From an uncultured Chloroflexia bacterium (GTDB lineage: Bacteria; Chloroflexota; Limnocylindria; Limnocylindrales; CSP1-4), in the NCBI GenBank assembly GCA_963810065.1, contig CAWELX010000007.1, positions 1,170,154-1,234,153 on the forward strand: a stretch of 64,000 bases of DNA, read 5' to 3'. A model generated the notes under the pieces. The model had not been told where the DNA came from. It worked only from the letters and a program-made list of their open reading frames with translations, and ran no database searches. The position numbers and the translations under genes are program-made. Shown here piece by piece: positions 1-64,000 of the stretch (positions are counted from its first letter, which is position 1; each line of letters starts with the position of its first letter).

Positions 1-349
1 CGACACCCAGCCCGTCGGGTGCCGTGATGGGCTCGAGGACCTCGAAGCGGTGTTGCTGGTCGTGGCCGCCCGGGCCCAGGCGGCGAGCGGGCTCCGCGGC
101 GCTCACACCCGTCAGGTGGCGATAGAACTCGGCCGTGAAGAAGCCGGCCCGTCTCATCTCGCCGTCGGAGACGATGTCGATGCCGGCCTCCTCCTGGTCG
201 CGGATCGCCGTGTTCACCGCGTCGTCCAGCGTCTCCCGGAGGTCGGCCGGCCCCAGCTCGCCACGGGCGTGGGCGGCCATCGCGGCGACCAGCCACGAGG
301 GGTGGGCGTGCGAGCCGACGACGCTCGTGAGGATGGCGGGGACGGTCAT
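1..349 (-). CDS. Cobalamin-independent methionine synthase (MetE C-terminal / UroD-MetE fold)-like protein, 5' part only; runs off the window edge so it is absent from the ORF track
   Basis: Minus-strand ATG at 349..347. My own translation gives MTVPAILTSVVGSHAHPSWLVAAMAAHARGELGPADLRETLDDAVNTAIRDQEEAGIDIVSDGEMRRAGFF..., with the VVGS..P..W / DLxxxxxxAVxxAIxxQExAGIDIVSDGE pattern typical of MetE C-domain / short archaeal-type methionine synthases. Same strand as the next gene. Confidence 0.5.
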   Translation of the reverse strand, partial: MTVPAILTSVVGSHAHPSWLVAAMAAHARGELGPADLRETLDDAVNTAIRDQEEAGIDIVSDGEMRRAGFFTAEFYRHLTGVSAAEPARRLGPGGHDQQHRFEVLEPITAPDGLGV

Positions 350-402
350 GGACGGTGCTCCGGGTTCCGGCGGGGACGGTGAGGGGCCATGATGCGCCCG
401 GC

Positions 403-1368
403 TCAGCCGGGCGTGGCGGCAAATGCGAACGCGCGGGCCGGGTTCGCCACGAAGAGGAGCGCCTGCTCCGGCGCCCCCAGGCCGCGGGCGGTCATCATCG
501 CTGCGAATTCGTCCAGGAGCCACGCCATGCCCGGGCTCCCGCCGTACGTCGCCCAGTACCCGCGGCGCGCCGCGTCCAGGCCCAGCACCACGCGGTCGCC
601 GAACCCATCCTCGAACGCCCACTCCAGCAGCGTCAGGGTCCCATTCGGCACGTCCGGCTTCCAGCGGAAGCCCTGGTCGTACTCGACCATCGCCCCCGTC
701 GCGAAGACCTCGCGCTGGTACCCGCGGTCGACCACCTTGTCGGTGTGCGAGAGGACGACGTTCTGCGGCGCCACGCCCCTGTCGACCAGGAACCGCGCCT
801 GGATGGCCCCCGCGGTGCCGCCCTCGCAATGCGTGAGGACCGGGACACCGGTCCGGACGTGCGCTTCCGCGGCAGCCGAGTAGACGCGCTCCTGGCGTGC
901 GGTGAGCCGGTCGGCGTCGCCGGCGATCTTGATGACACCCGCCCGGTGCGGCGTGCGCCGGACCACCGGGCCGGCATAGTCGTGCGCGTCGATGCCCTCG
1001 GCGACGTCGGCGACGAAAAGGCCGGCGATCTCCTCGACCGAGAGAATCGACCCCCAGTGGCGGTCGTGGTAGTAGCGCTCGTGGTGCAGCCCGGTCGGCG
1101 CCACGACGTGTACGCCGCTCTGCCGGCTGATCTCGGCCAGCTTCCCCGCGTTCCGGCCGCAGTCGGCCGGCATGGCGTCCACCACCGCGCGAAGCCCCAG
1201 CGCCTGCGCCGGCGCCAGCTCGGCCACGGCGTCCTCGACGGAGTCCAGGCGGAAGTCCGGGAAGAGCTGGACGGGCCGCCCGCCGTCGATGATGAGGTGC
1301 TCGTGGGCGTACGTGACGCCAAGGTCGCCCGGGTCGATGTCGCCCAAGACCGTGCGGACGAAGGGCAC
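403..1368 (-). CDS. Phosphotriesterase-family (PTE/Php, TIM-barrel amidohydrolase superfamily) metal-dependent hydrolase
   Basis: ORF 403..1425(-). The N-terminus (..GVTYAHEHLIIDG..) carries the PTE-family binuclear-metal His motif shortly after the start, and length and composition are protein-like over ~320 aa. The start was set at an internal GTG (VPFVRTVLGD...) and is uncertain. Confidence 0.7.
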   Translation of the reverse strand: MPFVRTVLGDIDPGDLGVTYAHEHLIIDGGRPVQLFPDFRLDSVEDAVAELAPAQALGLRAVVDAMPADCGRNAGKLAEISRQSGVHVVAPTGLHHERYYHDRHWGSILSVEEIAGLFVADVAEGIDAHDYAGPVVRRTPHRAGVIKIAGDADRLTARQERVYSAAAEAHVRTGVPVLTHCEGGTAGAIQARFLVDRGVAPQNVVLSHTDKVVDRGYQREVFATGAMVEYDQGFRWKPDVPNGTLTLLEWAFEDGFGDRVVLGLDAARRGYWATYGGSPGMAWLLDEFAAMMTARGLGAPEQALLFVANPARAFAFAATPG

Positions 1369-1482
1369 GCGGCAGCCTCCCGGGGACCGACGGGCGAGCG
1401 GGCGTGATCCACGCTGCGGGCCCATCGTTGCGAGTCTATCCGATATGGGTCCTATTGGTACGGACCTTTGACCCCGGCCGTA

Positions 1483-3675
1483 TCACGGCTCGCGGTCGTC
1501 GACGGTGCCAGTCAGCATGCGGTTGGTAACCCTGACCCCGACGACGAGCAGGGCCACGAAGAGGATCAGGAGGAGGATTGGCAAGGGCAGGAAGATCACG
1601 ATGTTCGTGCCGGAGAGCAGCGTGGCGGTGAAGATGATCCCCGTCGCGATGATCATGCCGGCGAGGATCATGCCCGCCGCCAGCATCTGGCCGATCCGGC
1701 TGACCTTGCCGATCTCGCGCGAGAGGTCGGCCGTGTTGACCTCGACGACGATCTTGCCCTTCTGGTACTGGTCAAGCCAGGACAGGGTCGCGGTCTGGAG
1801 GTCCGGCAGGCGCCGCCCCAGCTCCTTGCCGGTCTGGACCACCGTCTGGCGCAGCTGGGCGACCATCTTCTCCGCGGTCACCTCGCCGACCAGGAGCTCG
1901 CGGGCGTTCTTCAGCCCTTCGTCCAGGAGGCTGAACGAGGGGCTCAGGGTCCGGGTGATCTCCTCCACCTGGACCATGGCCTTCAGGGCCAGCGTGAAGT
2001 CCTGGTTGAGCTTGAGGCCATTGTCGTACAGCGTCCCCAGGATGCCGGAGATGGCAGCCCCGAAGTCGCCGCTGCCCCCGCCGCCGTACTTCAGGTACTG
2101 GTAGACGATCGCGTCGATCGCCGAGCGCACGCGGTCCGGGTTGACCGTCCCACGCTGCGTGCTCATGCGGGTCACGACGGCCGCGATCCCGGTCGCGTCC
2201 TTCTGGACCACCGACCACATCAGGTCAAGCAGGTCGAAGCGCTGGTCGCGGTTCAGCTGGCCGATGAGGCCGAGGTCCAGGAAGACGATCGTCCCGTCGC
2301 GCGTGTCGACGAGCACGTTCCCCGGGTGTGGGTCGGCGTGGAAGAAGCCGTCGACGAGGACCTGCTTGATGATCGCCCGCAGGAAGCTGCGCGCCACGAC
2401 GTCGCGGTCGACGCCGGCAGCCCCCATCGCCTCGACGTCGCTGATCTTGACGCCCCGGATGAACTCCATCGTGAGGACCCGCCGCGCGCTCCGAAGTCCA
2501 TCCACGTCGGGCACGCGGACCCCCTCGATCCCGGACATGTTCTCGGCGAGGCGACGCATGTGGTACGCCTCGTTGCGGTAGTCGAGCTCGATGAGGACGC
2601 CGGCGGCAAACTCCTCGAGGATGCCCCGCGCGTCCATCCGGCGGGCCAGCTCGAAGCGGTCCTCCATGACGCCCGCCAGGTCCTGCATGACGCCGAGGTC
2701 GGCGGCCACCATCGTCTGGACGTCGGGCCGCTGGATCTTCACCACGACCTCTCGGCCGTCGGGGAGCGTCGCGCGGTGGACCTGGGCCAGCGAGGCCGCG
2801 GCGAGCGCCTCCTCATCGAACGTGGCATAGAGCTCGGAGGCCGGCCTGTGCAGCTCCGACTCGATGATCGCGTGGGCGTTCGCGGCGGGGAACGGCGGGA
2901 CCGTGTTCTGGAGCTTGGCCAGCTCCTCCTGCCACGCCGGCGGGAGCGCCTCGGCGCGGCTGGAGACCATCTGGCCGATCTTCACGTACGTGGGGCCAAG
3001 CTGCTGGAGCATGACCCGCACCTTCGCCGGCGTGCTGAGAGCCGAGAGCTCCCGGTTCATGCCGCCGACGAGCTTCTGGAAGCGGTCACGGATGACGGCC
3101 ACCGGCGTGGACTCCAGGCCGATCTCGAAGCCGAAGGCGGCCACGGTGTTGTAGACCTGGATCAGGCGCAGGTTCTCGACGAGCTTGCTGCGGCGCGGCG
3201 TGGGCAGGCGATCGAGGAGCCGCCAGATGGCGCGCTGGCGGTCGCTCATGTCGAGCTGTGGCCGGTCGATGCCGACGACGATGTTGATGCCGCTGGCGAG
3301 CAGGGTGAACACGAGCGCGATCAGGGTGCCCCAGAGCCAGGTCGGCTGGGCGACCACGAACTCGCCCGGCGCCAGCCAGCTCGCGATGAACACCAGGAAG
3401 ACGTTCACGACGATCAGGATCAGGCCCATCGAACGCAGGAGGAGGCGGCCGGCCAGGACCAGGACGACGGGCCGGACGAACGCCCCCACGAGCGCGACGA
3501 AGAGGGCCATGAAGACGAGCGTGAGGACCGGATTGGACCCGAGCGCGAGGGCCGGCCCATTGAACGCAGCTCCGGTGAACGGGTCCGTGTAGTCGACCTT
3601 GATCAGGGAGAAGACGAAGAGGACGAGAAGGATCGTCAGCGTGTTGACGATGACCTGGGCGAAGAACCGTCGCAT
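1483..3675 (-). CDS. ABC1/UbiB-family atypical kinase with an extra N-terminal ~130-aa 4-TM domain and a C-terminal TM segment
   Basis: 730-aa ORF. The ABC1 signature QLGPTYVKIGQ, kinase-like HADPHPGN and D..LIGQL (DFG-like) motifs are present. The N-terminal ~130 aa are four hydrophobic helices (holin-IV/DUF360-like) before MSDRQRAIWRLLDRLP, which is where UbiB-like proteins usually begin. Confidence 0.8.
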   Translation of the reverse strand: MRRFFAQVIVNTLTILLVLFVFSLIKVDYTDPFTGAAFNGPALALGSNPVLTLVFMALFVALVGAFVRPVVLVLAGRLLLRSMGLILIVVNVFLVFIASWLAPGEFVVAQPTWLWGTLIALVFTLLASGINIVVGIDRPQLDMSDRQRAIWRLLDRLPTPRRSKLVENLRLIQVYNTVAAFGFEIGLESTPVAVIRDRFQKLVGGMNRELSALSTPAKVRVMLQQLGPTYVKIGQMVSSRAEALPPAWQEELAKLQNTVPPFPAANAHAIIESELHRPASELYATFDEEALAAASLAQVHRATLPDGREVVVKIQRPDVQTMVAADLGVMQDLAGVMEDRFELARRMDARGILEEFAAGVLIELDYRNEAYHMRRLAENMSGIEGVRVPDVDGLRSARRVLTMEFIRGVKISDVEAMGAAGVDRDVVARSFLRAIIKQVLVDGFFHADPHPGNVLVDTRDGTIVFLDLGLIGQLNRDQRFDLLDLMWSVVQKDATGIAAVVTRMSTQRGTVNPDRVRSAIDAIVYQYLKYGGGGSGDFGAAISGILGTLYDNGLKLNQDFTLALKAMVQVEEITRTLSPSFSLLDEGLKNARELLVGEVTAEKMVAQLRQTVVQTGKELGRRLPDLQTATLSWLDQYQKGKIVVEVNTADLSREIGKVSRIGQMLAAGMILAGMIIATGIIFTATLLSGTNIVIFLPLPILLLILFVALLVVGVRVTNRMLTGTVDDREP

Positions 3676-4328
3676 GGTCGAAGGCCTCCCGGCTCCTGGC
3701 GGCGCTCAGGCGCCGGGGGTGGTGTCGTCGGTGACGGGCGCATCGGCGGGCGGCGGTTCCGCGGTGGCCAGGTCCAGGGCGAGCTCGGGCCTGGCCGGTT
3801 GCGTCATCGGTTCGGCGGGAGCGACGGTGTCGGCCGGGGCGACCCTCGGCACGACAGCGGCGGCGACGGGCGCCACCACTCCGGCCGCCCCAGCCGCTTC
3901 GTCCGGCGGCGCTCCAGCCCCCGCGGCTCCGTCGTCGGGCAGCGCCGCGGCGATCTCGCCGATCCGCGAGCGCAGGTCGGCGGTCGCGGTCTCGAGCTCG
4001 CGGGCCGCCAGCCGGACGGCTCGGCCGACCTCCCGCAGGACGGGCTCCCACTCCGTGGCGGCCCGATCGACTTCCGGGCGCGCCTCGTCGCGGATGCGCT
4101 CGATCAGCGCGCGGCCCTCTGTCGAGGACGCGAACAGCGCACCGGCGGCACCGGCGGCGGCGCCCATCACGAACCCCACGATCTCGCGCACCGCGCTTCC
4201 TCCACGCTCGTCGGTCTCGACGGGCGCTCGGCGCGCCCGACGGCAAGGATCGCATCCACGCGGTCGTCGTGCACCGCCCGCGGCGGCGGCTGCCGCGGCC
4301 CGCGCAGGGGGTCGGCGGCCTGGCCGCG

Positions 4329-5680
4329 TCAGGCCGGCGCGGCGCCGCGGAGCGCGTCGATCTCGAGAATCGCCCCGGCCGCGCGGAGGCGATCGCGGAG
4401 CGCTGCCGGATCCAGGGCGCGGGGCTCGCGCCCTCGTTCGGCAGCCATCGCGGCGGCCGTGCCGGCGGCCTGGCCCATCGCCATGCACTGGGCCATGGAG
4501 CGGACCGAGGCGTGGGCGTCGTGCGTGGCCGAGAAGCAGCGGCCGGCGACCAGGAGGTTGACGGCATCGCGAACCAGCAGCGTCCGGTACGGGATGCCGA
4601 CCGCCTGGCCGTCGGGAAGGTAGTCCCAGCGCGGTGTCCGCACCCTCGTGATGGTCCTCGATCGGGGCGCCGCACAACCCGACCTGGTCGTCGAACTGGC
4701 GCGCGCCCAGGACGTCCTCCCGGGTGAGCCTGTAGTCCCCGTGGACGCGGCGGGTCTCGCGGACGCCGATCTGGCTGGACAACGTTGCGAGGGCCGCGCG
4801 CTCGTAGCCGGGCACGCGGTCCACGAGGAAGCGCACGTACTCCAGGGCCTGCCGACGCCCCTCCATCTCGCGGCGCGAGAGGAGCTCGGGATCCGTCGCG
4901 TTGACGACGCGTCCCTCGCGCGCCTCGAAGGAGGGAAGGCGGGTCATGACCGTCGCCGTCATCCCCTCCACCGGGGTCGCGTGGTCGGACCCCTCCAGGC
5001 GCGGGAGGTCGTAGGCGCCGGAAGCGGCGGCCTGCGCCATCAGCCCGTGGAGCTTGTCGTTCGAGACCTCCAGGCGCCGGTTCCGGTCGACGTTGACGAG
5101 CTTGAAGGTTGTCGTGAGCGTTTGCGCCGGGGCCAGCTCGCCGGCCTGCTCGTAGCCGAACCCGCCGAAGGCGCACAGATCGGCGTCGCCCGAGGCATCC
5201 ACGAACACCCGCCCGGCCACCAGCACGAGACCCGCCTTCGTGGCCACCACGACCTCGGTGACGCGCCCGTCGCAGACGACGACGTCCGCCAGGAAGGCGT
5301 GGAGCAGGACCCGCACCCCGGCGGCGACCACGAGCTCCTCCCAGGCGACCTTCAGGTGCTCCGGGTGATAGGTGATCCCGGTCCCGGCGCCGTACGTGTT
5401 GGGGCGCTCGACCACGCGGCCCCAGGCGGCGCAGGCTCGCGACCACGTCATCCGGGATGCCGCCGACGATCTTCCGCGGTGCGCTCCCCGGCGTAGAGAA
5501 CCCATAGAAGGTGTCCAGGACGGCGGTGCTCGTGCCGCCCAGGAAGCCGTTCTTCTCGATCAGCACGACCGACGCGCCCGTGCGGGCCGCGGCGATCGCG
5601 GCCGTCGAGCCGGCCGATCCCGAGCCCACGACCACGACATCGGCCGAGGCGGCGAGCGGGTAGGCGCGTGAGGCCTTCAT
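4329..5680 (-). pseudogene. FAD-dependent oxidoreductase (GIDA/FixC-like dinucleotide-binding fold) interrupted by two single-base frameshifts
   Basis: The N-terminus MKASRAYPLAASADVVVVGSGSAGSTAAIAAARTGASVVLIEKNGFLGGT (GxGxxG FAD fold) lies in the frame of ORF 3086..6160. After ..VASLRRLG the protein continues in the frame of ORF 3706..5505 (VVERPNTYGAGTGITYHPEHLK ... VFVDASGDADL ... CGAPIEDHHEGADT). It then continues in the frame of ORF 4329..4643 (RWDYLPDGQAVGIPYRTLLVRDAVNLLVAGRCFSATHDAHASVRSMAQCMAMGQAAG). The shifts are at ~5440 (GGGG run) and ~4640. The start ATG overlaps the SDR stop (ATGA at 5677-5680). Confidence 0.6.
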
Positions 5681-6486
5681 CACGATGGCGAGACCTGCGT
5701 CACGGACCACCCGCCGTCGACCAAGAGGAGCTGGCCGGTCACGTGGCGTGACTCCCCGGAGAGCAGGTAGACGGCGGCGGCCGCGACGTCCTCGGACGCC
5801 AGGAAGGCGCCGGCGAGCGGCTGCTTGCGCCGCGCGAAGGCGGCCGTGGCCGGATCCTCCGCGGCGCGCGCGGACATGGGCGTCGCGACCAGCGACGGTG
5901 CCACGACGTTCACGCGGATCCCGTGCGGCGCGTAGTACGCCGCCATGGTCGTGCCGAGGGCCGCGATCGCCCCCTTGGCCGCGGCATACGCGTGCGTGGC
6001 GAAGAGCTCCGGCACCGGGTGGGAAGCCAGGACGCTGCCCATCAGGAGCAGCGCTCCGCGGCTCCCGTCGGCGTCGGGCTCCTGGTCCAGCATCCGGCGC
6101 AGCACGGCCCGCGCTGCCAGCACCTGGGTGGTGAGGTTCAGGGCGAGGGTGCGGTCCCACGCGTCGCGGGTCAGCTCATGAACCGGTCCGTCGCCGAAGC
6201 GGCGGCCGGAGCCACCTGCGACCGCGAAGAGCCCATCGAGGCGCCCGAACCGGGCAGCCGCGGCCTTCACGGCCGCCTCCACCTGTGCTTCGTCGGTCAG
6301 CTCGGCCGGCAGGCAGGCGGCCTCGCCGCCAGATGCGGTGATGTCGTCCACCAGCGCAGCGCAGTGCTCGGCCGTTCGCGATGTCACGAAGACGCGCCCA
6401 CCCTCCGCGGCGAACCGGCGTGCCGCGGTCGCGGCCATCCCGGTCGAGCCCGTCACGAGGATGGTGCGGCCCGCCATGCGGTTCAT
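5680..6486 (-). CDS. Short-chain dehydrogenase/reductase (SDR) family oxidoreductase
   Basis: The real start is MNRMAGRTILVTGSTGMAATAARR (a TGxxxGxG Rossmann fold) at 6486..6484, and the protein reads YAAAKGA (catalytic YxxxK). The upstream 144 codons of the track ORF are a low-complexity artefact. The stop overlaps the downstream FAD-oxidoreductase start. Confidence 0.8.
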   Translation of the reverse strand: MNRMAGRTILVTGSTGMAATAARRFAAEGGRVFVTSRTAEHCAALVDDITASGGEAACLPAELTDEAQVEAAVKAAAARFGRLDGLFAVAGGSGRRFGDGPVHELTRDAWDRTLALNLTTQVLAARAVLRRMLDQEPDADGSRGALLLMGSVLASHPVPELFATHAYAAAKGAIAALGTTMAAYYAPHGIRVNVVAPSLVATPMSARAAEDPATAAFARRKQPLAGAFLASEDVAAAAVYLLSGESRHVTGQLLLVDGGWSVTQVSPS

Positions 6487-7376
6487 CGGACCCGCCGGGC
6501 AGGCCGGGCAGGCCGGGCGGGCTGGGCAGGCTGGGCCGCCTGGGCCGGTCGCGCCGTGCGGGTGGCTCCCGACCGAGCTGCACCGCGCCGCGGCGCCAGC
6601 GCCGGCGAAGGCGTCGCGAGCGCGACCTCGGCGATCATCCGCTCCTCGCCGGCCGGCGGCGGCTCGTTGATGCGACGCTCCAGCAGGAAGCGGGTCCGAT
6701 CGCCGCGGAGCAGCGCCTGGGTGTGCTCCACGGCCCGCCCCTGCGCATCGGTCGTGACGCGCCGGATCATCAGGGCCGGGGTGTTGCGCGGAACGCCGAG
6801 CTGCAGGGCCTCCTGCGGCGTGAGGATCACCGGTTCCAGGGTCTCCACGGCCGTGGCGACGCGGCAGCCGTAGTCCTCCAGCAGGACCTCGTACAGCGAG
6901 CGGACCGCCAGGTCGCACGTCTCGAGGCCCGGGAAGCGCGCAGCCGGCAGGTTCGACGACTCGAGGATCAGCGCCTCCGCCTCGACGGCGCGAATCCGCT
7001 CCAGGTGGACCACCGGGTCGCCGGGGAGGATCCCCAGCTCCGCGGCGCTGGCACGACCGGCATCGACCACCGCGGCCGCCACGACGCGCGTGGTCAGCTG
7101 CATGCCCCGCGCGCGGAGGGCCTCGCGGTAGCTGAAGAACCCGGCGAGATCGGCCTGGACCCGCGGACGGGCCACGAAGGTGCCGCGTCCCTGGTGCCGC
7201 GAGATCAGGCCGCGCTGCTCAAGCTCCGCGAGGGCCTGGCGCAGGGTCGCCCGGCTGACGTCGAGGTCGCGGCACAGCTCGCGCTCGGGAGGGAGCCGGT
7301 CGCCGGGCGCCCACTCGCCGGCGTGGATGCGGGCTTCGACCCGGCCCGCGGTCGTGGCGTGCAGCGGTTCGCGCAT
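6483..7376 (-). CDS. GntR-family (HutC/UTRA subfamily) transcriptional regulator with an unusual ~50-aa Pro/Ala/Gln/Arg-rich C-terminal tail
   Basis: 297-aa ORF. It has an N-terminal wHTH (LPPERELCRDLDVSRATLRQALAELEQRGLISRHQGRGTFV) and a UTRA-like effector domain. The tail ..PAQAAQPAQPARPARPARRVR is encoded by the caggccggg-type repeat at 6486-6560. Its stop overlaps the SDR start. Confidence 0.8.
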   Translation of the reverse strand: MREPLHATTAGRVEARIHAGEWAPGDRLPPERELCRDLDVSRATLRQALAELEQRGLISRHQGRGTFVARPRVQADLAGFFSYREALRARGMQLTTRVVAAAVVDAGRASAAELGILPGDPVVHLERIRAVEAEALILESSNLPAARFPGLETCDLAVRSLYEVLLEDYGCRVATAVETLEPVILTPQEALQLGVPRNTPALMIRRVTTDAQGRAVEHTQALLRGDRTRFLLERRINEPPPAGEERMIAEVALATPSPALAPRRGAARSGATRTARPAQAAQPAQPARPARPARRVR

Positions 7377-7614
7377 CGTCGGGTGGTCGCTCCCTGGGCG
7401 CCGCCGGTCGGCGCCGACCGGTCTCCACGCATCCTACCTCGAATGGTGTGAGTGGTACATACCATTTGGCAGGGCTCGGTGGCGCGCGACGCCGCTGCGG
7501 CCGTCGGTCGGCGAGCGTCGGCGCGCACCTGGGCGGCCGCCGGACGGTGGCCGGGTGCTTAGCCCCCGGCGGCGGTGGCCGGGTGCTCGGCCCCCGGCGG
7601 CGGCGGCCGGGTCC

Positions 7615-8362
7615 TCAGCCCCCGGCGGCGTCGGCCGGTGTGGGCGAGCGAAGCTCCAGCGGTCCAGGGCCGGTGGCCGGGGCGCGGCCCCGACGCTCGC
7701 GGCGGGCCATGACGGACTCGGCGATCCGGTAGACCGTGAGGAAGACGACGACGGTGGTCGCCGCGACGTACACCCACCAGGCCCACGGCGTGGAGGTGTC
7801 GGTGCCGCTCAGGATGCCGTGTGCCGTGGTGAAGGCAAAGGCCAGGAACGTGACGTAGTGGAGAAGGCGCCAGGAGCGCTGGCCGATGCGCCGGCGCAGG
7901 TGGAAGCTGGCGTACACGATCGCCACCAGGTAGATGGCCAGCTGGCCGAGGCCCACCCAGACCGGGCGGTAGGGCGACGCGAACGGGACGACCATCTCGG
8001 CGAAGCTGAAGGGCACCGTTGCATCGAGCCCCAGGAGCACCACGTGGACGCCGGCCAGGCCGAGACCGATCGCCGACAGGTCCTGGTGGAGGGCGAACGT
8101 CACGGGCCGGTGGGCGATCGGCGTCGAGGATCTTCGTGGACAGGAGGAGCCCGTAGATCACGGAGCCGGCGATGGCGAAGTAGGACAGGAACGCGGTGAT
8201 CCGGGTCGCCACCCACGGCAGCCGCTCGGGCGCGCTGCCGGCGAGCCGGACCAGGCCGTCCACGGCGAAGGGCAGCGTCGTCCCCAGCACGATCCCGACG
8301 GCGATGGCGAAGAGCCCCCACCGGACCAGGCTCGTGCGCGAGGAGAGTCCGCGGTACGTCAC
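7615..8362 (-). CDS. Ferric-reductase-like transmembrane (heme-binding) domain protein, apparently frameshifted
   Basis: The N-terminal part (frame of ORF 7559..8362) reads VTYRGL..LFAIAVGIVLGTTLPFAVDGL..ITAFLSYFAIAGSVIYGLLLSTKILDADRP. The continuation (frame of ORF 7615..8103) reads VTFALHQDLSAIGLGLAGVHVVLLGLDATVPFS..IYLVAIVYASFHLRRR..LLHYVTFLAFAFTTAHGIL, with the paired His of the FRD fold. The shift is at ~8080. The GTG start overlaps the apbE stop. Confidence 0.5.
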
Positions 8363-9367
8363 GCGAGGAACCTCGACGTGCGGGGCAGGGCGACGGTCCG
8401 GCCGTCGGCCAGGAGAGCGATCGCCCCCAGGGCAGGGCTCCGCTCGACGAGGTCAAGCCCGGTGGCCGCACCGAGGATCACGATCGCCTTGGCATATGCC
8501 TCGGCCTCGCGGGCCGACCCGGCGACCACCGTGGCCTGGACGACGTCGGATCGCGCCGGAGCGCCCGTCGCCGGGTCGATGAGGTGGTGGCGCCCCTCGT
8601 CCGCCCCGCCCCACCGATGGATGCTCGTGCCCGACGTGGCAACGCCGTAGGTCCGGCCGCCGAACGGTCCCCCGGGGAGCACCAGGACCGCCAGGAGGGA
8701 TGCGTCGTCACGGGGGTCGCCGACGCCGATCTCCCACGACTCGCCGGCGATGACGCGCACGGCGACGTCCCCGTCGGCGTCGACGAGGGCGCCGGCCCAG
8801 CGGAGGCCCGCGAGCGCCCGATCGGCCAGCCAGCCCTTGCCCACGCCGTCGAGATCGAGGCGAACGCCGGGCTCCCGGTCCACGACCCCGGAGCGGTGCC
8901 GGCCGCCGCCCCGGACGTCCCACGGTCGCGCGGCCGCATCGCCGACCCCGAGCGTCGAGGCGTGGGCGGTCGCTCCGGCAGATCCCGCGGGACCTTCCTC
9001 GGCGCGCAGGCGTGCGTCGAGGAGCGACACGTCGACCGCCCCGCCGGTGATCTCGCCCGCCTCGCAGCGCCCAGCGGAGCGCCGCGGCGAGCGTCGGGCC
9101 GACCGGTACCTCGGACCGCGGGTCGGCGTTGAGGAGCATGAGCCGGGACGCCGGGTCGTGCCGGGTGAGCATCGCGGCCCAGGCCCGGACGCGTGCCGCC
9201 ACGCGCCGCATCTCACGCTCGACGGCAGGTGCGTCCCCAGCAGGCGCGGTGACGTGGATCTCGAGGCGACCCCCCATGGCCTGCGCCCGGTGCACGAGAC
9301 GCGAGGCGGTGTCGATCGTGTCCACGTCGGCGGCAGGACCGGCCGGCAGGGCGACGGATCCGATCAC
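8359..9367 (-). CDS. apbE: FAD:protein FMN transferase (ApbE family), apparently frameshifted once
   Basis: N-term MIGSVALPAGPAADVDTIDTASRLVHRAQAMGGRLEIHV...RLMLLNADPRSEVPVGPTLAAALRWA (frame of ORF 8708..9367). It then continues as GEITGGAVDVSLLDAR...RLDLDGVGKGWLADRAL...GSAREAEAYAKAIVILG (frame of ORF 8359..9216). These are the ApbE hallmark motifs. The shift is at ~9065. Confidence 0.65.
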
Positions 9368-9654
9368 GGCTTGACGACAGTCCCGGACTGGGTGGTCGTG
9401 ACGACGACGGTCTGCGGCTTCGCGACGGGTGCCGGGAGCTGGGTCACCACCACGTTCGGCCCGGCGCTCTGCGGTGCCTTGACGCCCGGTGGGAGCTTCA
9501 CGACGCGGGTGACCTGCGTGACGATGGCGGCGTCCGCGGGTGTGTCCGCCTGGGCCATGACCAGCGGGGCGCCGGCCGGAAGGGCGGCGCTCGAGATCGT
9601 CGCCAGGAGCGCGGAGAGGGCGGCGACTCCGCCCGCGGCCAGGGCGAAGCGCAT
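9364..9654 (-). CDS. Small secreted Pro/Val/Thr-rich protein (signal peptide + ~65 aa)
   Basis: MRFALAAGGVAALSALLATISSAALPAGAPLVMAQADTPADAAIVTQVTRVVKLPPGVKAPQSAGPNVVVTQLPAPVAKPQTVVVTTTQSGTVVKP. The stop overlaps the apbE start (operon with the flavinylation genes). Confidence 0.4.
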   Translation of the reverse strand: MRFALAAGGVAALSALLATISSAALPAGAPLVMAQADTPADAAIVTQVTRVVKLPPGVKAPQSAGPNVVVTQLPAPVAKPQTVVVTTTQSGTVVKP

Positions 9655-9820
9655 CGGGCGCGGGTCAGGGCGCGACGCCGCCGCACGGCCGTGGGCGGCT
9701 GGACCCGCGGCGGCTCCTGTGGCAGCCGGGCGGCCGGAGGCGGGAGCACCCGAGCGAGTGGCCCGGGCTGGCGTGCCGGGCGCGGTCTCCCGCGGGGCCG
9801 GGTTCTCGCGGAGCGCCATC

Positions 9821-10126
9821 TCAGTCGTCTCCTTCGTTCTCGTTCTCGTTCTCGTTCTCGCCGCCGCCCGCGACGACCTTGTGGACGACGACGACCGGAG
9901 CCGGAGGCGCCGTCGGGGTCTCCTGGTAGACGGTGGTGACCTGCGTCCCGGCCGGCGGCGGGGGATCCGCCGGGAGCGCCATGACCGCGACGGTCTCGGG
10001 GGCGGCCGGCGTGGCCGGGCCCCCGAGACCGGCGGCGGCGCCCAGGGTGAGCGCCGCCGCCAGCCCCGCCACGACGATCGCGGAGCGCCGTGGTCCCGTG
10101 CGGCGAGAGGGGTTCGAAACCTGCAT
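9821..10126 (-). CDS. Small secreted Pro/Thr-rich protein with a C-terminal (EN)4 repeat
   Basis: 101-aa ORF. ..AIVVAGLAAALTLGAAAGLGGPATPAAPETVAVMALPADPPPPAGTQVTTVYQETPTAPPAPVVVVHKVVAGGGENENENENEGDD. Composition resembles the neighbouring small protein. It is the first gene after the promoter region shared divergently with the RR/HK pair. Confidence 0.35.
   Translation of the reverse strand: MQVSNPSRRTGPRRSAIVVAGLAAALTLGAAAGLGGPATPAAPETVAVMALPADPPPPAGTQVTTVYQETPTAPPAPVVVVHKVVAGGGENENENENEGDD
9836..9859. repeat. Hexanucleotide tandem repeat (gttctc)x4, encoding ENENENEN on the minus strand
   Basis: Direct reading of gttctcgttctcgttctcgttctc at 9836-9859. Confidence 0.8.
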
Positions 10127-10300
10127 TGGTGGCTCCAGTGGTGCTGCGGCAGGCCGTGGGCTCCGCCGCGTGAAGGTTCGGGTGACGATGGCCGCATGGT
10201 CGCCCCGGCCGATGAGGCCCGCGTGTGCCGTTCATGTGGGATCGCACAGGAAGGCCGCCCGGCCGTTGACGCGGGCCGGGCCGACCGGGAGGATGGGGGC

Positions 10301-23440: not shown

Positions 23441-23502
23441 TCGTCAGCGGCCGAGGCTGCTGATCAGAAGCGGCCCAGGCCGTTGATCCGCGGTTGCGTG
23501 GC

Positions 23503-24314: not shown

Positions 24315-24318
<4 letters not shown>
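23503..24318 (-). CDS. ABC-2 type transporter permease
   Basis: 271 aa with 6 predicted TM helices and an ABC-2 family layout. It ends in TAG, showing TAG is a genuine stop here. The start overlaps the ATPase stop. Confidence 0.85.
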
Positions 24319-41979: not shown

Positions 41980-42073
41980 ACGACACAGACCAGGTCGCCT
42001 CCGTCACCGCAGGAGGCGACAGATGAAGAACAGGCACCACGACGCCTCCATCACCGCGGGAGGCGATCGATGA
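41933..42073 (+). repeat. Three tandem 47-bp units, each ending GGAGGCGA(T/C)(C/A)GATGA (an SD-like GGAGG plus ATGA stop/start overlap). They create two 16-codon mini-ORFs (41976-42026 MNDTDQVASVTAGGDR; 42023-42073 MKNRHHDASITAGGDR) chained between the membrane-protein gene and the giant-protein ORF
   Basis: Direct reading: units at 41933-41979, 41980-42026 and 42027-42073 (period 47, ~75% identity, the last 20 nt nearly identical). Each unit's TGA overlaps the next ATG. The upstream membrane protein ends ..THDGGDR and both peptides end ..TAGGDR. Confidence 0.6.
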
Positions 42074-42141
42074 GCAGCAGCGACCACCGCGCCTCCGGGG
42101 CCGGCCTTCGACGGGCAACCAGGAACGAGGAGTACCAGGCA

Positions 42142-48641: not shown

Positions 48642-48696
48642 TGCCATGCCTGACCACGACATCACCCGTCCAACCGTCGCCGAGGGAGACAACGTC

Positions 48697-50100: not shown

Positions 50101-50129
50101 GACGGCGGCTGAGGAACGGAGTGATCACG

Positions 50130-51492: not shown

Positions 51493-51528
51493 TGAGAGGT
51501 AGGGGAACGACGATGATCCGGACGTACG

Positions 51529-54430: not shown

Positions 54431-54504
54431 AGCGCCATGACGAGCATCGAACGGTCCGAGCGGGACCGCAGCCTCACGGCTGCGGTCCGGAAGCCGGGGA
54501 TCCC

Positions 54505-55000
54505 GTGCCGGCTCCTCGAGCCGGCCGGGGTCACCCCGAGCCGCCGGGTGCGGCCTCGCACCTGATCGCGGCGATCGTCGGCGTCCTCGTGCTGCCGATC
54601 GCCGTGGCGGCGACTGTCTGGACGCAGCCCGACGGCCGCAGCGAATGCCGCCGCCGCCCGCGTCGTGTCCGCGTCGGACCTCGAGGAGGAGTACGGCATC
54701 AAGGTCAACCTCGTGGCCGTGAGCGCCGGCGGCGGCATGATCGACGTGCGGTTCACGGTCATCGACAAGGACAAGGCGCTCCACCTCCTCCACGACGCGA
54801 CGAGCGATGCCGGCCCTGCTCGTCGAGCCGAGCGGCACCGTGATCCCGCGCCGACGGGGATGCGACACAAGGTCACGATCCTCGACGGGGGGACGTACTT
54901 CATCCTCTACGCGAACCCCGGCGGCGCGATCCAGGCCGGCACGCCCGTGTCGGTCGTGATCGACGACGTCCGGCTCCAGCCAATCGACGCGCAGAGCTGA
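54505..55000 (+). CDS. Small membrane-anchored protein (TM helix + ~110-aa beta-rich extracytoplasmic domain), at least one frameshift near the 5' end
   Basis: ..ASHLIAAIVGVLVLPIAVAATVWTQP (TM) in one frame, then AAAARVVSASDLEEEYGIKVNLVAVSAGGGMIDVRFTVIDKDKALHLLHDATSD...GMRHKVTILDGGTYFILYANPGGAIQAGTPVSVVIDDVRLQPIDAQS in the next. Function unknown; it lies between the MCO block and the subtilase. Confidence 0.3.
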
Positions 55001-55013
55001 CTGGAGACCCCCG

Positions 55014-57939
55014 ATGCGACGGACCATCACCCTGGCCCTCGTGGCCGTCCTCCTGGTCGCGGCCCTGCCCGCCGCGGCCGCCGGGGCGTCCTTGCCGGGC
55101 CAGGTCGGTTCGCGCATCACCACGTCCGCTGGCGCCGCGGCCGCTGCCCCGGCGCCAGCGGACATGACCACCGTCATCGTCACGATGCGCGACCGGGCCG
55201 ACCTTGGAGCCATCGGGGGCGGCACGCGAGCCGCCCGCCTCGCCGCCATCATCCGGGCACTTCGCGCCCGGGCGGGGCTGTCCCAGGCCCCGCTGCTGTC
55301 CTTCCTCCGCCGGCAGGCCGCGCTCGGCCGCGTTGCCCGCCAGGACTCGTTCTGGGTCTTCAACGGCCTCTCGGTCACGGCCACGCCGGCAGTGGTGGCC
55401 CTGATCGCCGCCCGGGCCGACGTCGCGAGCGTCACGCCGGACGAGATCCCGATCGTGCCGGTGGCGGCCGCAGTGCCACTCCGGCCGGCCGCTGCTCCTC
55501 CAACGTCCTTCGCCCCGGCGGAGACGAACGTCTCCCTCGTCAATGCCCCGGCCCTGTGGGCCCTCGGGTACACCGGGCAGGGCGTGGTCGTCGCCAACCT
55601 CGACTCCGGCGTTGACGCGAGTCATCCGGACCTGGCGGGTCGGTGGCGGGGCGGCACCAACTCCTGGTTCGATCCTTACGGTCAGCACCCGACGACGCCG
55701 ACGGACCTCAGCGGCCACGGCACGGCGACCATGGGCGATCATGGTCGGCGGAGACGCCGGGGGAACGTCGATCGGCGTGGCCCCTGGTGCGACATGGATC
55801 GCCGCCAAGATCTTCAACGACGCCGGCACGGCAACCGCCACCGCCATCCACGCAGCCTTCCAGTGGGTCCTCGACCCGGACGGCGACCCGGCAACCGCCG
55901 ACGCGCCACAGGTCGTGAACAACTCGTGGGCCTACGGGACGCCGGGTTGCGACCTGGCCTTCCAGCCGGACCTGCAGGCGCTGCGCGCGGCGGGAATCCT
56001 GCCGATCTTCGCGGCCGGCAACTACGGCCCGGGGACCGCGACGAGCGTCGAGCCCGGCGAACTACCCCGAGGCACTCGCCGTGGGCTCGATCAAGAACAC
56101 GAGCGTCCTCGACGGGACGTCGAGCCGCGGGCCGTCGGCCTGCGGCGAAGCGGCGACGGCCTATCCCGAAATCGTCGCCCCCGGAGTGAAGGTCCGGACG
56201 ACCGATCTGCACGGCTTCTACCAGGTGGCAACGGGGACCTCCCTCGCCGCGCCGAACGTTGCTGGTGCCCTGGCACTCCTGCTGAGCGCCCACCCGGGTC
56301 TCAGCCCGGACGCCCAGGCCGCTGCGCTCACCGGCTCGGCGGTCGATCTCGGCGTGGCCGGGCCCGACAACAGCTACGGGTACGGGCGCCTGGACGTCCT
56401 CGCCACGTATGACGCTCTGACGGCGGCGCGACGCCCACGCCGACGCCCACGCCGACGCCCACGCCGACGCCCACGCCCACGCCCACGCCGACGCCCACGC
56501 CCACGCCGACGCCCACGCCCACGCCGACGCCGACGCCGACGCCCACGCCCACGCCGACGCCCACGCCCACGCCCACGCCCACGCCGACGCCCACGCCCGA
56601 CGCCACCGGACCGGTGACCTCCGGCCTGGCGCTGGCGCCGGCTCAGACCAACGGGTCGGTCGACGCGGCCCTCAGCGCCACCGGTGACGACTCGGCCACC
56701 GGCCGCTCGAACATCGTGGCGGCCGAGTACACCATCGACGGCGCCCCGGCCGTCGCCATGTCGGTCGGTGCACCCGCCCCCGTCGCCGGTCTGCACGCGA
56801 CCATCCCGACGACAACCCTTGCCGAGGGCACTCACGTGGTCGCGGTGCGCAGTGAGGATGCGGCCCTCAACTGGGGGGCGACGAGCACCATCGTCCTCGT
56901 CGTGGACAAGACTGCGCCGGCCGTCAGCTCTATCTCCGCTGCGCCGAACCCGACCGTGGGGGCGGCGAGCGTCACCCTGCTGGCCTCGGCGACCGATGCC
57001 GGCAGCGGCGTCACGGCAGCCGAGTGGTTCACCGGCGCAGATCCGGGCGCAGGCAACGCCGCAGCGATGACCCCGACCGGCACTGGCCCGTGGACCCTTG
57101 GTGCCACGGTCACCGTCAGTACCTGGGCGAACGGCAGCTACACGCTCAGCGTGCGGGCGCGGGATGCTGCGGGCAACTGGAGTTCGCTCGGGAGCACCGT
57201 GCTCGTGGTTAGTGCATCATCGCCGCCGCCGGCGCTCCTGTACTTCTCGACGCTGGGCAACACGGCAGTCCCGGGCGTGGGAGGCACGGCTGACGATGCC
57301 GACATCTACGCCACGAACGGCACGACCTACACCCGGGAGATCGACGCGAGCGGCACAGGCAGCCTGGGGCTGCCCAGCGGCGCCAATGTCGACGGCTTCG
57401 TCCGAGTCGACGCCACCCACTTCTACGCGTCCTTCAGCGCCACGAACACCTCGGTGCCCGGCCTCGGCAATGTCCAGGACGAGGACGTCGTCTACTACAA
57501 CAACGGTGTCTGGTCGGTCTACTTCGACGGCACGGCCCACGGCCTGACCGCCAACAACCAGGAGATCGATGCGTTCAGCATCGTCGGGGGGACCCTGTAC
57601 TTCTCGACATTCGGGAACACCAATCCCCCGGGTGTCACCGGCACGGCTGACGACGCCGACATCTACAGCTGGAACGGATCGACCTACAGCCGGGTCTGGG
57701 ATGCGACCGCCAGCGGTCTCCCGGGTACAGCCAATGTCGACGGCCTCAAGCTCGTCGACGCCACCCACTTCTTCCTTTCGTTCAGCTCCACGACCACGAC
57801 GGTGCCGGGCCTGGGTGCGGTTCCAGACGTGAACGTCGTCTATGACAGCGCCGGAACCTGGTCGACCTACTTCGCCGGCGCCGCACACGGGCTGGTCGCC
57901 GGGACCGGCCAGGACGTGGACGCCATCGACATCCCGTAG
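55014..57939 (+). pseudogene. Secreted subtilisin-like serine protease (S8) with TP-repeat linker and C-terminal Ig-like + duplicated beta-rich domains; three apparent frameshifts
   Basis: Signal peptide MRRTITLALVAVLLVAALPAAAAGAS. Pro-domain/catalytic: VVVANLDSGVDASHPDL (Asp), DLSGHGTATMG (His), shift ~55,745, ..GVAPGATWIAAKIF...VVNNSWAY (Asn), shift ~56,060, ..VATGTSLAAPNVAGALALLLSAHPG (Ser), shift ~56,429. Then (TP)n in frame 1, and TPDATGPVTSGLALAP... Ig-like modules (..TIVLVVDKTAPAVSSISAAPNP.., ..TLSVRARDAAGNWSSLGSTVLVV), then two ~110-aa internal repeats (LYFSTxGNTxxPGVxGTADDADIYxxNGxTYxR...ANVDGxxxVDATHFxxSFSxTxTxVPGLGxVxDxxVVY). Confidence 0.6.
56431..56598 (+). repeat. Hexanucleotide coding microsatellite (ACGCCC/ACGCCG)n encoding a (Thr-Pro)n linker of ~28 dipeptides
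   Basis: Direct reading. Frame 1 gives TPTPTP..., continuous with the downstream domain ORF 56614..57939. The upstream catalytic domain is in frame 2 and would read RPRRRP. Confidence 0.8.
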
Positions 57940-61904: not shown

Positions 61905-62603
61905 GGTCGCGCCATCATAGGGCCCCGTCGCGCGGTTGCACTCCCCCAACCTTGGGGTACGGCCCATCGCCCGGTGCCATGGAGCAGGTGGCCCGGCTCG
62001 GCGAGGGCGAGCTCGACCAGCTGTTCGACCCGGCGACCTCGACCGCGCCCTGCCTCCCGGAGGCGACTCGGCGTGGTCAGGCCACGGTTGACGGCCTCCC
62101 GGATAGCGCGTGCGACCTGCTTGGGCGCCACCCCGGCCGCGGCGACATCGGCGATCGTCCGGCCGGGCGCGGTCAGGCGCATCCCGTTCCGGACGACCAC
62201 GCTGGACCCGTCAAGCGGCCGCGTCGTCGTGTGCAGCGCGACCCCGGGTCGCCGCGAGAGCTTCCGTCGGCTCCGCGGGACGGACAGGTGGATCTGCTCG
62301 GGGATGACGTCCGAGAGCCCGAAGACCTCAAGCGCGGATTCGTGCGGACACGACGGGAGCGAGACTGAGCCAGGCCGCGAGGAGTTCCTCACGGGGTGAC
62401 GACGGGTAGTCTCGGAGCCGGTACACGCCTCGAGCGACACGGACGAAGCGGCCGCTCCTTGCATGATGGTTGAGCAGCGGAGAGCTGAAGCCGAGTTCAC
62501 GGGCCTGGGCCGTGGTGAAGTAGCCTGCCTGTCCGGTTGCGATCGCGAAGAGGCGTGCGTGATCAGGGCACGAGGCACGTGTCGTGTCGTCCATCTCGTG
62601 CAT
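61901..62603 (-). CDS. AbiEi-family (type IV TA antitoxin-like) transcriptional regulator domain protein, one apparent frameshift; no AbiEii partner present
   Basis: N-term (frame of ORF 62328..62603) MHEMDDTTRASCPDHARLFAIATGQAGYFTTAQARELGFSSPLLNHHARSGRFVRVARGVYRL (AbiEi_4 wHTH). The C-term (frame of 61901..62851) reads HESALEVFGLSDVIPEQIHLSVPRSRRK..PGVALHTTTRPL...GMRLTAPGRTIADVAAAG...EAVNRGLTT. A single extra base at ~62,335 separates them. Confidence 0.55.
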
Positions 62604-63026
62604 AGTACGTAGGTTTGGAACGACATCGCGCGCGGCGTGGGCATCATCGGGTCACCCGCCGCGGCTCCGCGACCCGCGACATGGCTCCGCCTTCGGCTGG
62701 TGATCCGGCCCCGAACGCTACCAGGGGGGACCCGTTCCCCGCCCCAACCCAACCCCGGGCGCCGCCTGACCAGCTCCTCAGCTCCCCGTCTGATCAGGTC
62801 TTTGAACGAGGTTCGCTCCCACCAGGCGATCGCCTTGAGCCGATCCGCCACCCGCCACGGGAGCAGGAGTGCTCGCGGTCGGGGGCGGGAGGAGCTGGCT
62901 GGCGCTCCGCGAGGTAGTGCGCCAGGGTGGACCGCAGCTCGTCGAACGCGGCGAGCAACCGCGCCTCGGGGGTCACGGCTTCGGCTCGGCTGACGATCCG
63001 GTCCCTGTGCGGTCGCGTTCGGCGGG

Positions 63027-63503
63027 CTAGCCCATGAGCGTGTATGTGACGGTGAGCGTCCCTGCGGGCTTCACGATGAGCATGTAGGCGAGGATGAGCA
63101 GCCCTAGGCCCACCAAGAGAACGCAGATCAGCGCGACGAGCCAAGCACCGCACCCCCACTGGCCCTGTGCCCAGGACTGGCTCGACACGCTGTAGCCGAG
63201 CGCTGCGAACTGCTGGGCCTCCTCGGAGAACCGGGAGTTGGCGTCCTTCTGCTGCTTCCCCTTGTATTCGCGCACGACGGTCAGCGATAGCGGGTCCTTG
63301 AGTCCGAGTCGCCTCAAAGCCGCCCCTCGCGCCGCAGCGCGCGCCGCCTCGGCATCTCCCGCATTGGCAAGTGAGCCAGGAGCCGAGGCAGCCGACACTG
63401 GAGCAACGGACTCGGAGACCGGAGGCGCGGGCGCAGGGTTGGGGGTAGCGGGCTCTGGCTCGGGTGCACCCGGCTCGGGGCTCGTCGGCTCCATGAGCTG
63501 CAT
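63027..63503 (-). CDS. Hypothetical protein: Pro-rich N-terminus, central soluble segment, C-terminal TM helix
   Basis: MQLMEPTSPEPGAPEPEPATPNPAPAPP...LGLKDPLSLTVVREYKGKQQKDANSRFSEEAQQFAALGYSVSSQSWAQGQWGCGAWLVALICVLLVGLGLLILAYMLIVKPAG. Lys-containing and non-Arg-biased, unlike the artefact ORFs. Confidence 0.4.
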   Translation of the reverse strand: MQLMEPTSPEPGAPEPEPATPNPAPAPPVSESVAPVSAASAPGSLANAGDAEAARAAARGAALRRLGLKDPLSLTVVREYKGKQQKDANSRFSEEAQQFAALGYSVSSQSWAQGQWGCGAWLVALICVLLVGLGLLILAYMLIVKPAGTLTVTYTLMG

Positions 63504-63858
63504 CCTCCGTACTCGTGGTCCAGGGGGCCTAGGCCTCAACCTACAAGGCGCGGGTCGAGCGCAGCAGTGCCAACCCGCCCCATCGCTCGGCACGGCCCCC
63601 GGAGGCTCGGCGCGCGTCCCGTCCCGCGAGCGGAGTGGAACGCCCGGTGCGGAGCCGGATTCAGCCGGGCGCAGCGGGGTCGCCTCGGGCCGTCGCCGGG
63701 AGTCTTCCTCGCGATCCTCGAGGAACGCCTGACGGAGACGCTGGTTCAGGCGGGCCCGGCGGTCGCAACGGGGTCCCTATCGATCATCGGGTTCGTGGCG
63801 GCCATGCCCCCGGCACGAACCCATTGCCGATCTCTATCGAGCTCGTCTTCTGGTTAGG

Positions 63859-64000
63859 TCAGAGGTTGAAGCGGGCGACGAGCGGGCAGTGGTCGGAGAG
63901 ATCCCACACCTCGGGGTGCAACTCTCCCCAGGCGGGCGATGCCTAACGCACGACGAGGACGAACGTTCCCTTCCCGACCGTGAAGCTGTAGTGATTGGGG
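63859..64000 (-). CDS. 3' end of an endonuclease/exonuclease/phosphatase (EEP)-family gene, with an in-frame TAG
   Basis: Minus-strand translation (my own) ..HYSFTVGKGTFVLVVR-TAG-ASPAWGELHPEVWDLSDHCPLVARFNL-TGA. The SDHxPLxxxF C-terminal motif is typical of EEP nucleases/phosphatases. Confidence 0.35.

Follow-up and report, generated by a model that had tools for sequence, protein, structure and literature searches.

A 64,000-nt stretch of an uncultured Chloroflexota genome (referred to as the window in the rest of the text), part of a metagenome contig of 1,533,031 bp (1.53 Mb), carries pristine operons beside genes broken by single-base frameshifts, which raises the question of whether the broken genes are decaying in the organism or were damaged in the assembly. 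A preliminary description of this DNA had considered both possibilities, taking disruptions in homopolymer runs to favour consensus error and the clustering of the disruptions to favour real pseudogenisation of particular loci. Relative to orthologs and Pfam models, the whole window contains at least 44 shifts and two in-frame TAG codons.

Frameshift-aware protein-to-DNA alignment against intact orthologs (relatives L004, L084, L142 and others), with a codon-usage Viterbi analysis as a second line of evidence, placed at least 37 net shifts, and probably 40-45, in a 7.6-kb block (4.8 per kb), compared to 7 in the remaining 56.4 kb. This 40-fold enrichment (binomial P = 1.1e-27) confirms that gene integrity is non-uniform far beyond chance. 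The preliminary description, which had called for such a scan, counted more than 12 events between 48.6 and 57.9 kb; these are real and more numerous than described, but the zone ends earlier, at 56,423, beyond which positions 56,425-57,939 form a single open frame in which the S8 subtilase gene runs to its stop. The shifts are spread over three multicopper-oxidase genes, one small gene and one S8 protease gene. The zone and the genes in and beside it are as follows.

48,784-56,423, plus strand: dense frameshift zone, at least 37 net ±1 shifts (18 '+1' and 19 '−1'), median spacing 123 nt
42,070-48,641, plus strand: giant secreted protein gene (SdrD_B, CarboxypepD_reg, TIG, beta-helix, DUF11), single −1 shift at 45,799-45,859
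48,697-50,094, plus strand: multicopper oxidase 1 (MCO1; TAT signal), at least 3 frameshifts and an in-frame TAG at 48,882-48,884
50,135-51,489, plus strand: multicopper oxidase 2, about 11 frameshifts
51,530-54,432, plus strand: multicopper oxidase 3, at least 20 frameshifts; carries Ig-like repeats, its C-terminal domain being a paralogue of 48,014-48,648
54,440-55,000, plus strand: small conserved protein with a membrane anchor (relatives: about 190 aa), 4 frameshifts (54,563; about 54,640; 54,803; 54,846)
55,014-57,939, plus strand: S8 subtilase with Thr-Pro linker and Ig-like/C-terminal repeats, 3 frameshifts (55,737; 56,050; 56,423)
56,431-56,604, plus strand: (ACGCCS)x29 tandem repeat encoding the Thr-Pro linker, last dense-zone shift 8 nt upstream

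Most other genes of the window are intact. The UbiB/ABC1 gene (1,483-3,675) and the CopC-CopD gene (58.5-60.5 kb) are uninterrupted, as first described, and so is the menaquinone operon, which serves as an internal control for a low error rate.

12,396-23,432, plus strand: menaquinone (men) operon, eight intact genes

Its genes, in the order TetR-MenF, MenD, MenH, MenB, MenA, MenC, MenE-hydrolase and MenG/UbiE, give full-length Pfam matches, overlap at GTGA/ATGA junctions and are collinear and in frame with the relative L144. An identical copy of the MenH protein was seen on one Logan contig from run ERR12035938, a run that contains the same population. Exact-protein look-ups with the products of 41,332-41,979 and 24,315-25,355 returned nothing usable, and an Rfam scan and a tRNA scan of the window gave no matches.

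Outside the dense zone the background is about 0.12 shifts per kb. Besides the shift in the giant gene, which was previously placed near 45,850 and is now located to 45,799-45,859, the isolated lesions are the following.

4,330-5,690, minus strand: FAD-dependent oxidoreductase gene, two isolated frameshifts (about 5,420 and about 4,624)
7,694-9,368, minus strand: ferric-reductase-like gene and ApbE gene, shifts at about 8,116 (ferric reductase) and about 9,062 (ApbE)
26,370-26,945, minus strand: DUF3090 gene, one-base insertion at 26,729 (26,727-26,729)
61,980-62,560, minus strand: AbiEi-like antitoxin gene, frameshift near 62,335 (VVS/HESALEV)
63,943-63,945, minus strand: in-frame TAG in the C-terminal part of an endonuclease/exonuclease/phosphatase-like (EEP) gene running off the window

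Stitching two frames together restored continuous full-length Pfam matches for the FAD oxidoreductase (one PF12831 match, 1-396 of 416), ApbE (1-264 of 266) and DUF3090 (one match over its full length), in agreement with the disruptions first reported for these genes. A '+2' Viterbi segment at 4,222-4,443 proved spurious, the oxidoreductase ending near 4,330. The disruptions of the ferric reductase, described near 8,080 and found near 8,116, where the stitched Pfam match is weaker, and of AbiEi, near 62,335, are likewise supported but less firmly. The EEP TAG, described near 63,950, lies at 63,943-63,945.

The spectrum of lesions in the dense zone was then compared with what each explanation predicts. 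Runs of at least four identical bases lie within ±9 nt of 10.8% of the shift sites, compared to 12.5% of all zone positions, so that homopolymers are not enriched at the shift sites. Nor are the shifts concentrated at long mononucleotide or short tandem tracts, in contrast to homopolymer-driven errors or phase-variable contingency loci; the window's longest runs, a G8 at 38,994 and a G7 at 41,625 (the latter within an ORF), cause no shift. All shifted segments retain coding-type codon usage, and five of the five shifted genes align full-length and colinearly with intact orthologs. Only one true in-frame stop was found in the zone, the TAG at 48,882; TGA codons at 52,908 and 56,853 were rejected as wrong-frame readings. 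On reading through the sequence, no mobile element was noticed. The edges of the zone are sharp. The idea that they correspond to exact repeats was only partly upheld: the upstream paralogous domains (48,014-48,648 and 53,832-54,439) are 75% identical, too divergent for classical repeat collapse, and the downstream edge adjoins the 174-bp tandem repeat.

MCO1 required a recount. Using L003 proteins as the alignment reference had over-counted its shifts, since the L003 MCO1 has four shifts of its own, and the recount was based on references with long open reading frames. Comparison of MCO1 with the 90%-identical DNA of L084 revealed one deletion, and the first MCO1 shift is a 1-nt deletion (CCTGGG-CCCC in the window, CCTGGGGCCCC in L084). 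The in-frame TAG first noted near 48,885 lies at 48,882-48,884, although the residue expected there is not necessarily Tyr, relatives having Ser, Thr or Tyr.

Since both in-frame stops of the window are TAG and the shifted segments are still coding-like, programmed ribosomal frameshifting or stop-codon read-through could in principle keep the genes functional as written. We consider the likelihood of such recoding to be practically negligible, because the orthologs are read in a single frame with no shift needed at any site, inspection of the sequence contexts revealed no slippery or other motif and no context common to the shift sites, and TAG is an ordinary stop elsewhere in the window, ending for example the ABC-2 gene as well as the giant gene. 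Programmed frameshifting is not known to involve dozens of shifts within one gene, in both directions.

Real pseudogenisation, in which the multicopper-oxidase/S8 cluster would have been inactivated and be decaying through small indels, deserves closer attention, as the frames are disrupted relative to intact orthologs, the lesions are largely confined to one functionally coherent gene cluster and one in-frame TAG is present. Moreover, L144 was not found to carry the cluster at the syntenic site, suggesting that the cluster may be accessory and dispensable. About 40 real indels are normally accompanied by several-fold more substitutions, i.e. hundreds, plus dozens of stops and some larger deletions. 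However, the single true stop and the full-length colinearity with orthologs do not make up a mixed lesion spectrum in proportion to the indels, and the homopolymer bias of slippage-type mutation is missing. Relative-rate counts yielded 187 amino-acid changes unique to the window and 211 unique to L003 in the shifted genes (outgroup L004), compared to 64 and 66, respectively, in the N-terminal block of the largely intact giant gene (outgroup L006). Among alignment columns that show no variation across up to 40 orthologs, the window departs from the shared residue at 8 of 426 in the shifted genes and at 5 of 380 in the giant gene. Neither measure shows an excess of amino-acid change in the lineage of the window. 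At 26,729, where relatives could be compared, the lesion is not reproduced, both L144 and a 94%-identical JGI protein being intact. Together with the patches found at other positions in Nanopore-only assemblies and their absence from the tested short-read contigs (see below), these results make pseudogenisation of the cluster very unlikely, and the clustering of the lesions does not favour it as initially proposed. Should the roughly 40 one-base indels nevertheless be real, they would represent a very recent, indel-specific burst within 7.6 kb and almost without substitutions, for instance if error-prone repair had acted locally or an accessory island had been the target of mutagenesis, which we consider very improbable.

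The relatives point to consensus error instead. L004, L005, L009 and L013, short-read assemblies according to their record names, and the JGI metagenome contigs L081-L084 and L142, for which we assumed a short-read platform, lack the shifts of the window; L005, L009 and L013 were tested and have no frameshifts, and L004 and the JGI contigs served as long-ORF references. L142, L140 and L143 had been considered as fragmented relatives, which was rejected as their apparent breaks are only contig ends. The closest relatives are Nanopore-only metagenome-assembled genomes (MAGs) of the Microflora Danica (MFD) project, which were assembled with metaFlye and one round of Medaka without short reads (PMC12313526). 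These carry private patches of 3-10 kb that are as dense as that of the window but lie at other positions, with 21 shifts in L003 (5,397-8,713), 27 in L010, 10 in L011 and 5 in L001; the patch measures 3.3 kb in L003 and 9.5 kb in L010, compared to 7.6 kb in the window.

L144, a 95.1%-identical relative whose contig follows Flye-style naming, allowed a direct comparison outside the dense zone; shifts inside the zone were judged through evolutionary signatures and analogy. Its DUF3090 gene is intact where the window has one base more (CAGCGAGG in the window, CAGGAGG in L144). Conversely, the window is intact at five places where L144 carries an intragenic shift of its own (window-equivalent positions 25,963, 27,362, 29,507, 29,579 and 30,191). 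Over 18.5 kb, the window and L144 thus have one and five private intragenic shifts, respectively, and none in common, i.e. the one-base indels are private to each assembly and reciprocal between siblings, as expected of long-read error. For the dense zone itself, the relatives recovered by a metagenome scan and by two protein searches with the stitched proteins reach at most about 80% identity, and no independent assembly above 90% was found in the collections searched.

Altogether, these observations strongly support consensus error, one of the two options of the preliminary description, but not through the homopolymers that it invoked (10.8% compared to 12.5%). The disruptions are very probably technical, consisting of residual long-read consensus errors with one patch near raw-read quality, and the multicopper oxidases, the small protein and the S8 protease would be intact in the organism.

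A mixed situation, in which errors account for the dense patch and for most of the scattered shifts while some isolated lesions are real (AbiEi near 62,335, the EEP TAG and possibly the MCO1 TAG), is unlikely but retains some plausibility. The AbiEi gene has no recognisable adjoining AbiEii partner, suggesting a remnant, and nonsense substitutions are less typical of long-read consensus error than indels. On the other hand, the background of 0.12 shifts per kb is enough to explain the AbiEi event, housekeeping genes of L144 that look intact carry 0.27 private shifts per kb, and a patch with about 0.5% indel error should also contain a few erroneous substitutions, roughly one of which may create a stop.

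How could residual error become so concentrated? The length of the contig, 1,533,031 bp in an uncultured lineage, is indicative of long reads, and we infer that the contig was most likely assembled from Nanopore reads alone. Such a contig would carry a low background of one-base consensus errors, here about 0.12 per kb. The indel density between 48.78 and 56.42 kb, about 0.5%, is roughly that expected of a single current-chemistry Nanopore read, suggesting that the consensus there probably derives from very few or poorly matched reads. The balance of '+1' and '−1' shifts (18:19) and the lack of homopolymer enrichment are as expected of stochastic read noise and not of replication slippage, and the non-homopolymer, extremely patchy distribution of the sites suggests that usable coverage was locally scarce, and not that basecalling was systematically biased. 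Possible causes would be a drop in local coverage over an accessory or strain-variable segment, mis-recruitment of reads from co-occurring relatives during polishing, or an unpolished chunk.

The relevance of these findings lies in annotation, not in biology. At least 11 genes of the contig would be called fragments or pseudogenes, and the practical warning first given to users of this contig is valid. Truncated products of this single contig are already on record, 111-aa and 391-aa products being present as entries in public protein collections. Because the genes are called as fragments, the copper/oxidase metabolism of the lineage would be under-called. As the same patchy problem affects the sibling public MAGs L003, L010, L011, L001 and L144, comparative or pseudogene-based inference on such long-read MAGs needs frameshift-aware gene calling or re-polishing.

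Residual indels in Nanopore-only (meta)genome assemblies are known to truncate predicted proteins relative to their orthologs, as described for R9/R10.4 data (PMC9262707). The window resembles such assemblies in that one-base indels split conserved genes, are private to each assembly and are absent from short-read assemblies of relatives; in contrast to the classical errors, for which homopolymer-derived indels are stressed, its sites are not homopolymer-associated and are 40-fold enriched in one 7.6-kb block. As in decaying loci and genomes such as those of Mycobacterium leprae or recently host-restricted symbionts, adjacent genes are multiply frameshifted while their neighbours are intact. 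Genuine decay is also accompanied by nonsense mutations, deletions, insertion sequences and a loosening of amino-acid constraint; of these, only a single stop was seen in the dense zone. Assemblies can also contain low-quality stretches where the consensus comes from a single uncorrected long read or very few of them, as in gap fills, bridges with weak support or unpolished chunks. The dense zone may be of this kind, as it shares with such stretches a read-length-sized block, a near-raw indel rate, balanced insertions and deletions, and sharp edges.

Gene integrity is strongly uneven along the window, as the preliminary description had claimed: frameshifts occur at 4.8 per kb in a dense zone of five genes on the (+) strand (48,784-56,423) and at 0.12 per kb outside it (binomial p = 1.1e-27). 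As a feature of the assembled sequence the pattern is genuine, and it matters to users of the contig. Truncated gene products of the window are recorded from a single 1,533,031-bp contig in NCBI and ENA. The window has a G+C content of 73%. Its gene map, based on a codon-usage Viterbi model trained on the window's own long open reading frames and on Pfam scans, comprises:

UbiB/ABC1, an SDR and a GntR-like regulator, together with a ferric-reductase/ApbE group
Two-component pair, and an eight-gene menaquinone (men) operon at 12.4-23.4 kb
ABC exporter, and a DUF3090/SCO1664-like/histidine-phosphatase group
Additional two-component systems
42 to 58 kb: large cluster of secreted-protein and oxidase genes
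Copper genes: CopC-CopD and YtkA-like

The men operon is undamaged, with full-length Pfam matches for the men genes and GTGA/ATGA overlaps, and UbiB and CopCD likewise read without interruption. The operon is headed by an atypical fusion: one 714-aa open reading frame (12,396-14,540) contains both a TetR-type regulator (TetR_N, TetR_C_24) and a chorismate-binding domain of the isochorismate-synthase type. A 735-aa product (20,335-22,541) combines MenE (AMP-binding) with an alpha/beta-hydrolase domain; this fusion is probably real because a 95%-identical relative, L144, encodes the same architecture (753 aa). Two secreted proteins of ~600-680 aa (31,100-32,777 and 39,230-41,128) are paralogs with 70-75% nucleotide identity; the second adjoins a two-component system and carries a 96-nt/18-nt Pro-Ala-Ser-Asp-rich repeat insert at 40,275-40,486.

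To count the disruptions, we ran our own frameshift-tolerant protein-to-DNA aligner on 48.6-57.9 kb with orthologous proteins of nine related loci, using as counting references those whose open reading frames are long (L004, L084, L083, L081, L142, L006 and L002).

Frameshifts in the dense zone, from alignment with the long-open-reading-frame references
MCO1, multicopper oxidase: at least 3
MCO2, multicopper oxidase: about 11
MCO3, multicopper oxidase: at least 20
Small gene: 4
S8 protease: 3

In place of the earlier figure of more than 12 events, a conservative list contains 37, the first at 48,784 and the last at 56,423; the S8 gene is open from 56,425 to its stop at 57,939. A 174-bp (ACGCCS)n repeat begins 8 nt after the last shift and may mark a boundary of alignment or polishing. 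The supposed preference of the indels for homopolymers was not borne out, as runs of at least 4 lie within ±9 nt of 10.8% of shift sites, compared to a background of 12.5%. The window's longest homopolymers are a G8 at 38,994 and a G7 at 41,625 inside a 215-aa membrane-protein gene; neither gives a frameshift, and the G7-bearing gene is in frame with its relatives. Natural one-base indels are expected to prefer mononucleotide runs. The lack of such a preference, together with the balance of +1 and -1 shifts (18:19), speaks against real pseudogenisation of these genes.

Four further lines of evidence argue against decay. First, every shifted gene matches the full ortholog length segment by segment, with coding-type codon bias in all segments and no larger deletion in alignments over the whole ortholog length. 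Second, lineage-unique residues are not in excess: the five shifted genes have 187 in the window and 211 in the sister L003 (outgroup L004), and the N-terminal block of the adjacent giant gene (42,070-48,641, +) has 64 and 66, respectively (outgroup L006). Third, the window departs from columns that are invariant in as many as 40 orthologs at 8/426 positions in the shifted genes and 5/380 in the giant gene, both inside the range of intact genomes. Fourth, the dense zone contains a single true in-frame stop; TGA at 52,908 and 56,853 were rejected as wrong-frame readings. In bacteria, ~40 fixed indels should be accompanied by several-fold more substitutions, about three quarters of them altering the protein sequence and a few percent introducing stops. 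By our estimate, real decay would predict roughly 25 or more invariant-column deviations and many stops, which were not observed. A handy internal control is the ~200-aa C-terminal domain common to the giant protein and MCO3 (48,014-48,648 and 53,832-54,439; 75% nucleotide identity), fully in frame in the former and with five shifts in the latter.

Outside the dense zone, seven shifts are scattered over 56.4 kb. Joining the frames yielded single continuous Pfam matches for FAD_oxidored (model 1-396/416, spanning two junctions), ApbE (1-264/266) and DUF3090 (1-170/170), in agreement with the disruptions first described. For ferric reductase and AbiEi, the junctions can be recognised by eye, with weaker Pfam backing. 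Both reported in-frame stops are indeed TAG, one in MCO1 (48,882-48,884) and one in the endonuclease/exonuclease/phosphatase-like (EEP) gene (63,943-63,945, -), although the residue expected in MCO1 is not just Tyr, relatives having Ser, Thr or Tyr. The AbiEi shift and the EEP TAG might be real lesions. No adjacent AbiEii toxin partner is recognisable beside the AbiEi-like antitoxin gene (61,980-62,560, -); the open reading frame downstream codes for a membrane-like protein without Pfam match.

Searching with the repaired DUF3090 protein retrieved a 97%-identical protein on L144, an ENA contig of 218 kb named in the Flye style (ERZ25039459 contig_14320) that shares 95.1% DNA identity with window 16,367-34,919. 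The window has an extra base at 26,729 (CAGCGAGG versus CAGGAGG), the exact DUF3090 shift site, and the gene is intact in L144. Conversely, L144 has five private one-base differences (window-equivalent 25,963, 27,362, 29,507, 29,579 and 30,191) that disrupt its SCO1664-like, histidine-phosphatase, ADP-ribosylglycohydrolase/phosphatase and PfkB genes, all five sites being intact in the window. Listing every indel across 16,367-34,919 revealed no shift common to both. When near-identical genomes differ reciprocally by frameshifts private to each assembly, this is the signature of consensus error. Synteny ends at ~34.9 kb, past a GT4 glycosyltransferase; beyond it, L144 (1-2,022) carries an RCC1-repeat gene, whereas the window continues with two-component systems and, farther along, the oxidase cluster. 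Window 35-58 kb may be an accessory island.

The conserved, syntenic cluster (42,070-57,939; counterparts in loci L001-L143) codes for a giant secreted beta-helix/Ig-like protein, three multicopper-oxidase-domain proteins, a membrane-anchored ~190-aa protein without Pfam match and an S8 protease. It adjoins the CopC-CopD and YtkA-like copper genes and appears functionally uncharacterised. A 47-nt tandem repeat (2.8 copies, 41,965-42,096; no Rfam match) is located at the 3′ end of the 215-aa gene and extends as far as the first ATG of the giant gene (42,070), upstream of the predicted signal peptide. A tblastn search of GTDB species-representative genomes for MCO2 relatives returned 160 stretches, of which the 80 kept represent separate loci in Chloroflexota, Actinomycetota and other groups, with synteny checked in the closest only. 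The cluster is also present in many Actinomycetota; its closest public relatives, with 75-83% nucleotide identity, are MAGs of uncultured, Limnocylindria-like Chloroflexota, and no independent assembly of the dense zone above ~80% identity was found in the collections searched.

Scanned with the same aligner, contigs with short-read-style names showed no shifts (L005, L009 and L013) or one doubtful event (L012). L006 and L007 were clean, as was L002 from its open reading frames, and in the contigs that served as references, L004 and L081-L084/L142, the genes are open over long stretches. Private dense patches were found in several Nanopore-only Microflora Danica MAGs: L003 (21 shifts, 5,397-8,713) and L010 (27 shifts, 2,350-11,479), both clean beyond their patches, L011 (10 shifts) and L001 (5 shifts). 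All lie in the same gene cluster at positions different from those of the window, and gene calls in these public contigs will be fragmented likewise. These MAGs were assembled with metaFlye and one Medaka round, without short reads (PMC12313526).

Of the two explanations initially offered, consensus error is favoured by the intact short-read-style orthologs and by the reciprocal private shifts. Biologically, the pattern is almost certainly an artefact, and once corrected the genes are to be annotated as intact. The background shift rate fits residual error in a long-read-only assembly of moderate coverage. The dense patch has ~0.5% indels without context bias, sharp edges and few substitutions (two or three excess codons at invariant columns and one stop), and resembles sequence close to raw-read quality, whose consensus was probably built on very few or poorly matched reads. 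Coverage could have dropped across a strain-variable or accessory segment, a candidate suggested by the end of synteny with L144, for which no close copy of the oxidase cluster was found in the collections searched. Reads could also have been cross-recruited from co-occurring relatives carrying the same conserved cluster, as L001-L003 share one sample, or polishing might have missed a chunk. In size, the patch is similar to those of L003 and L010.
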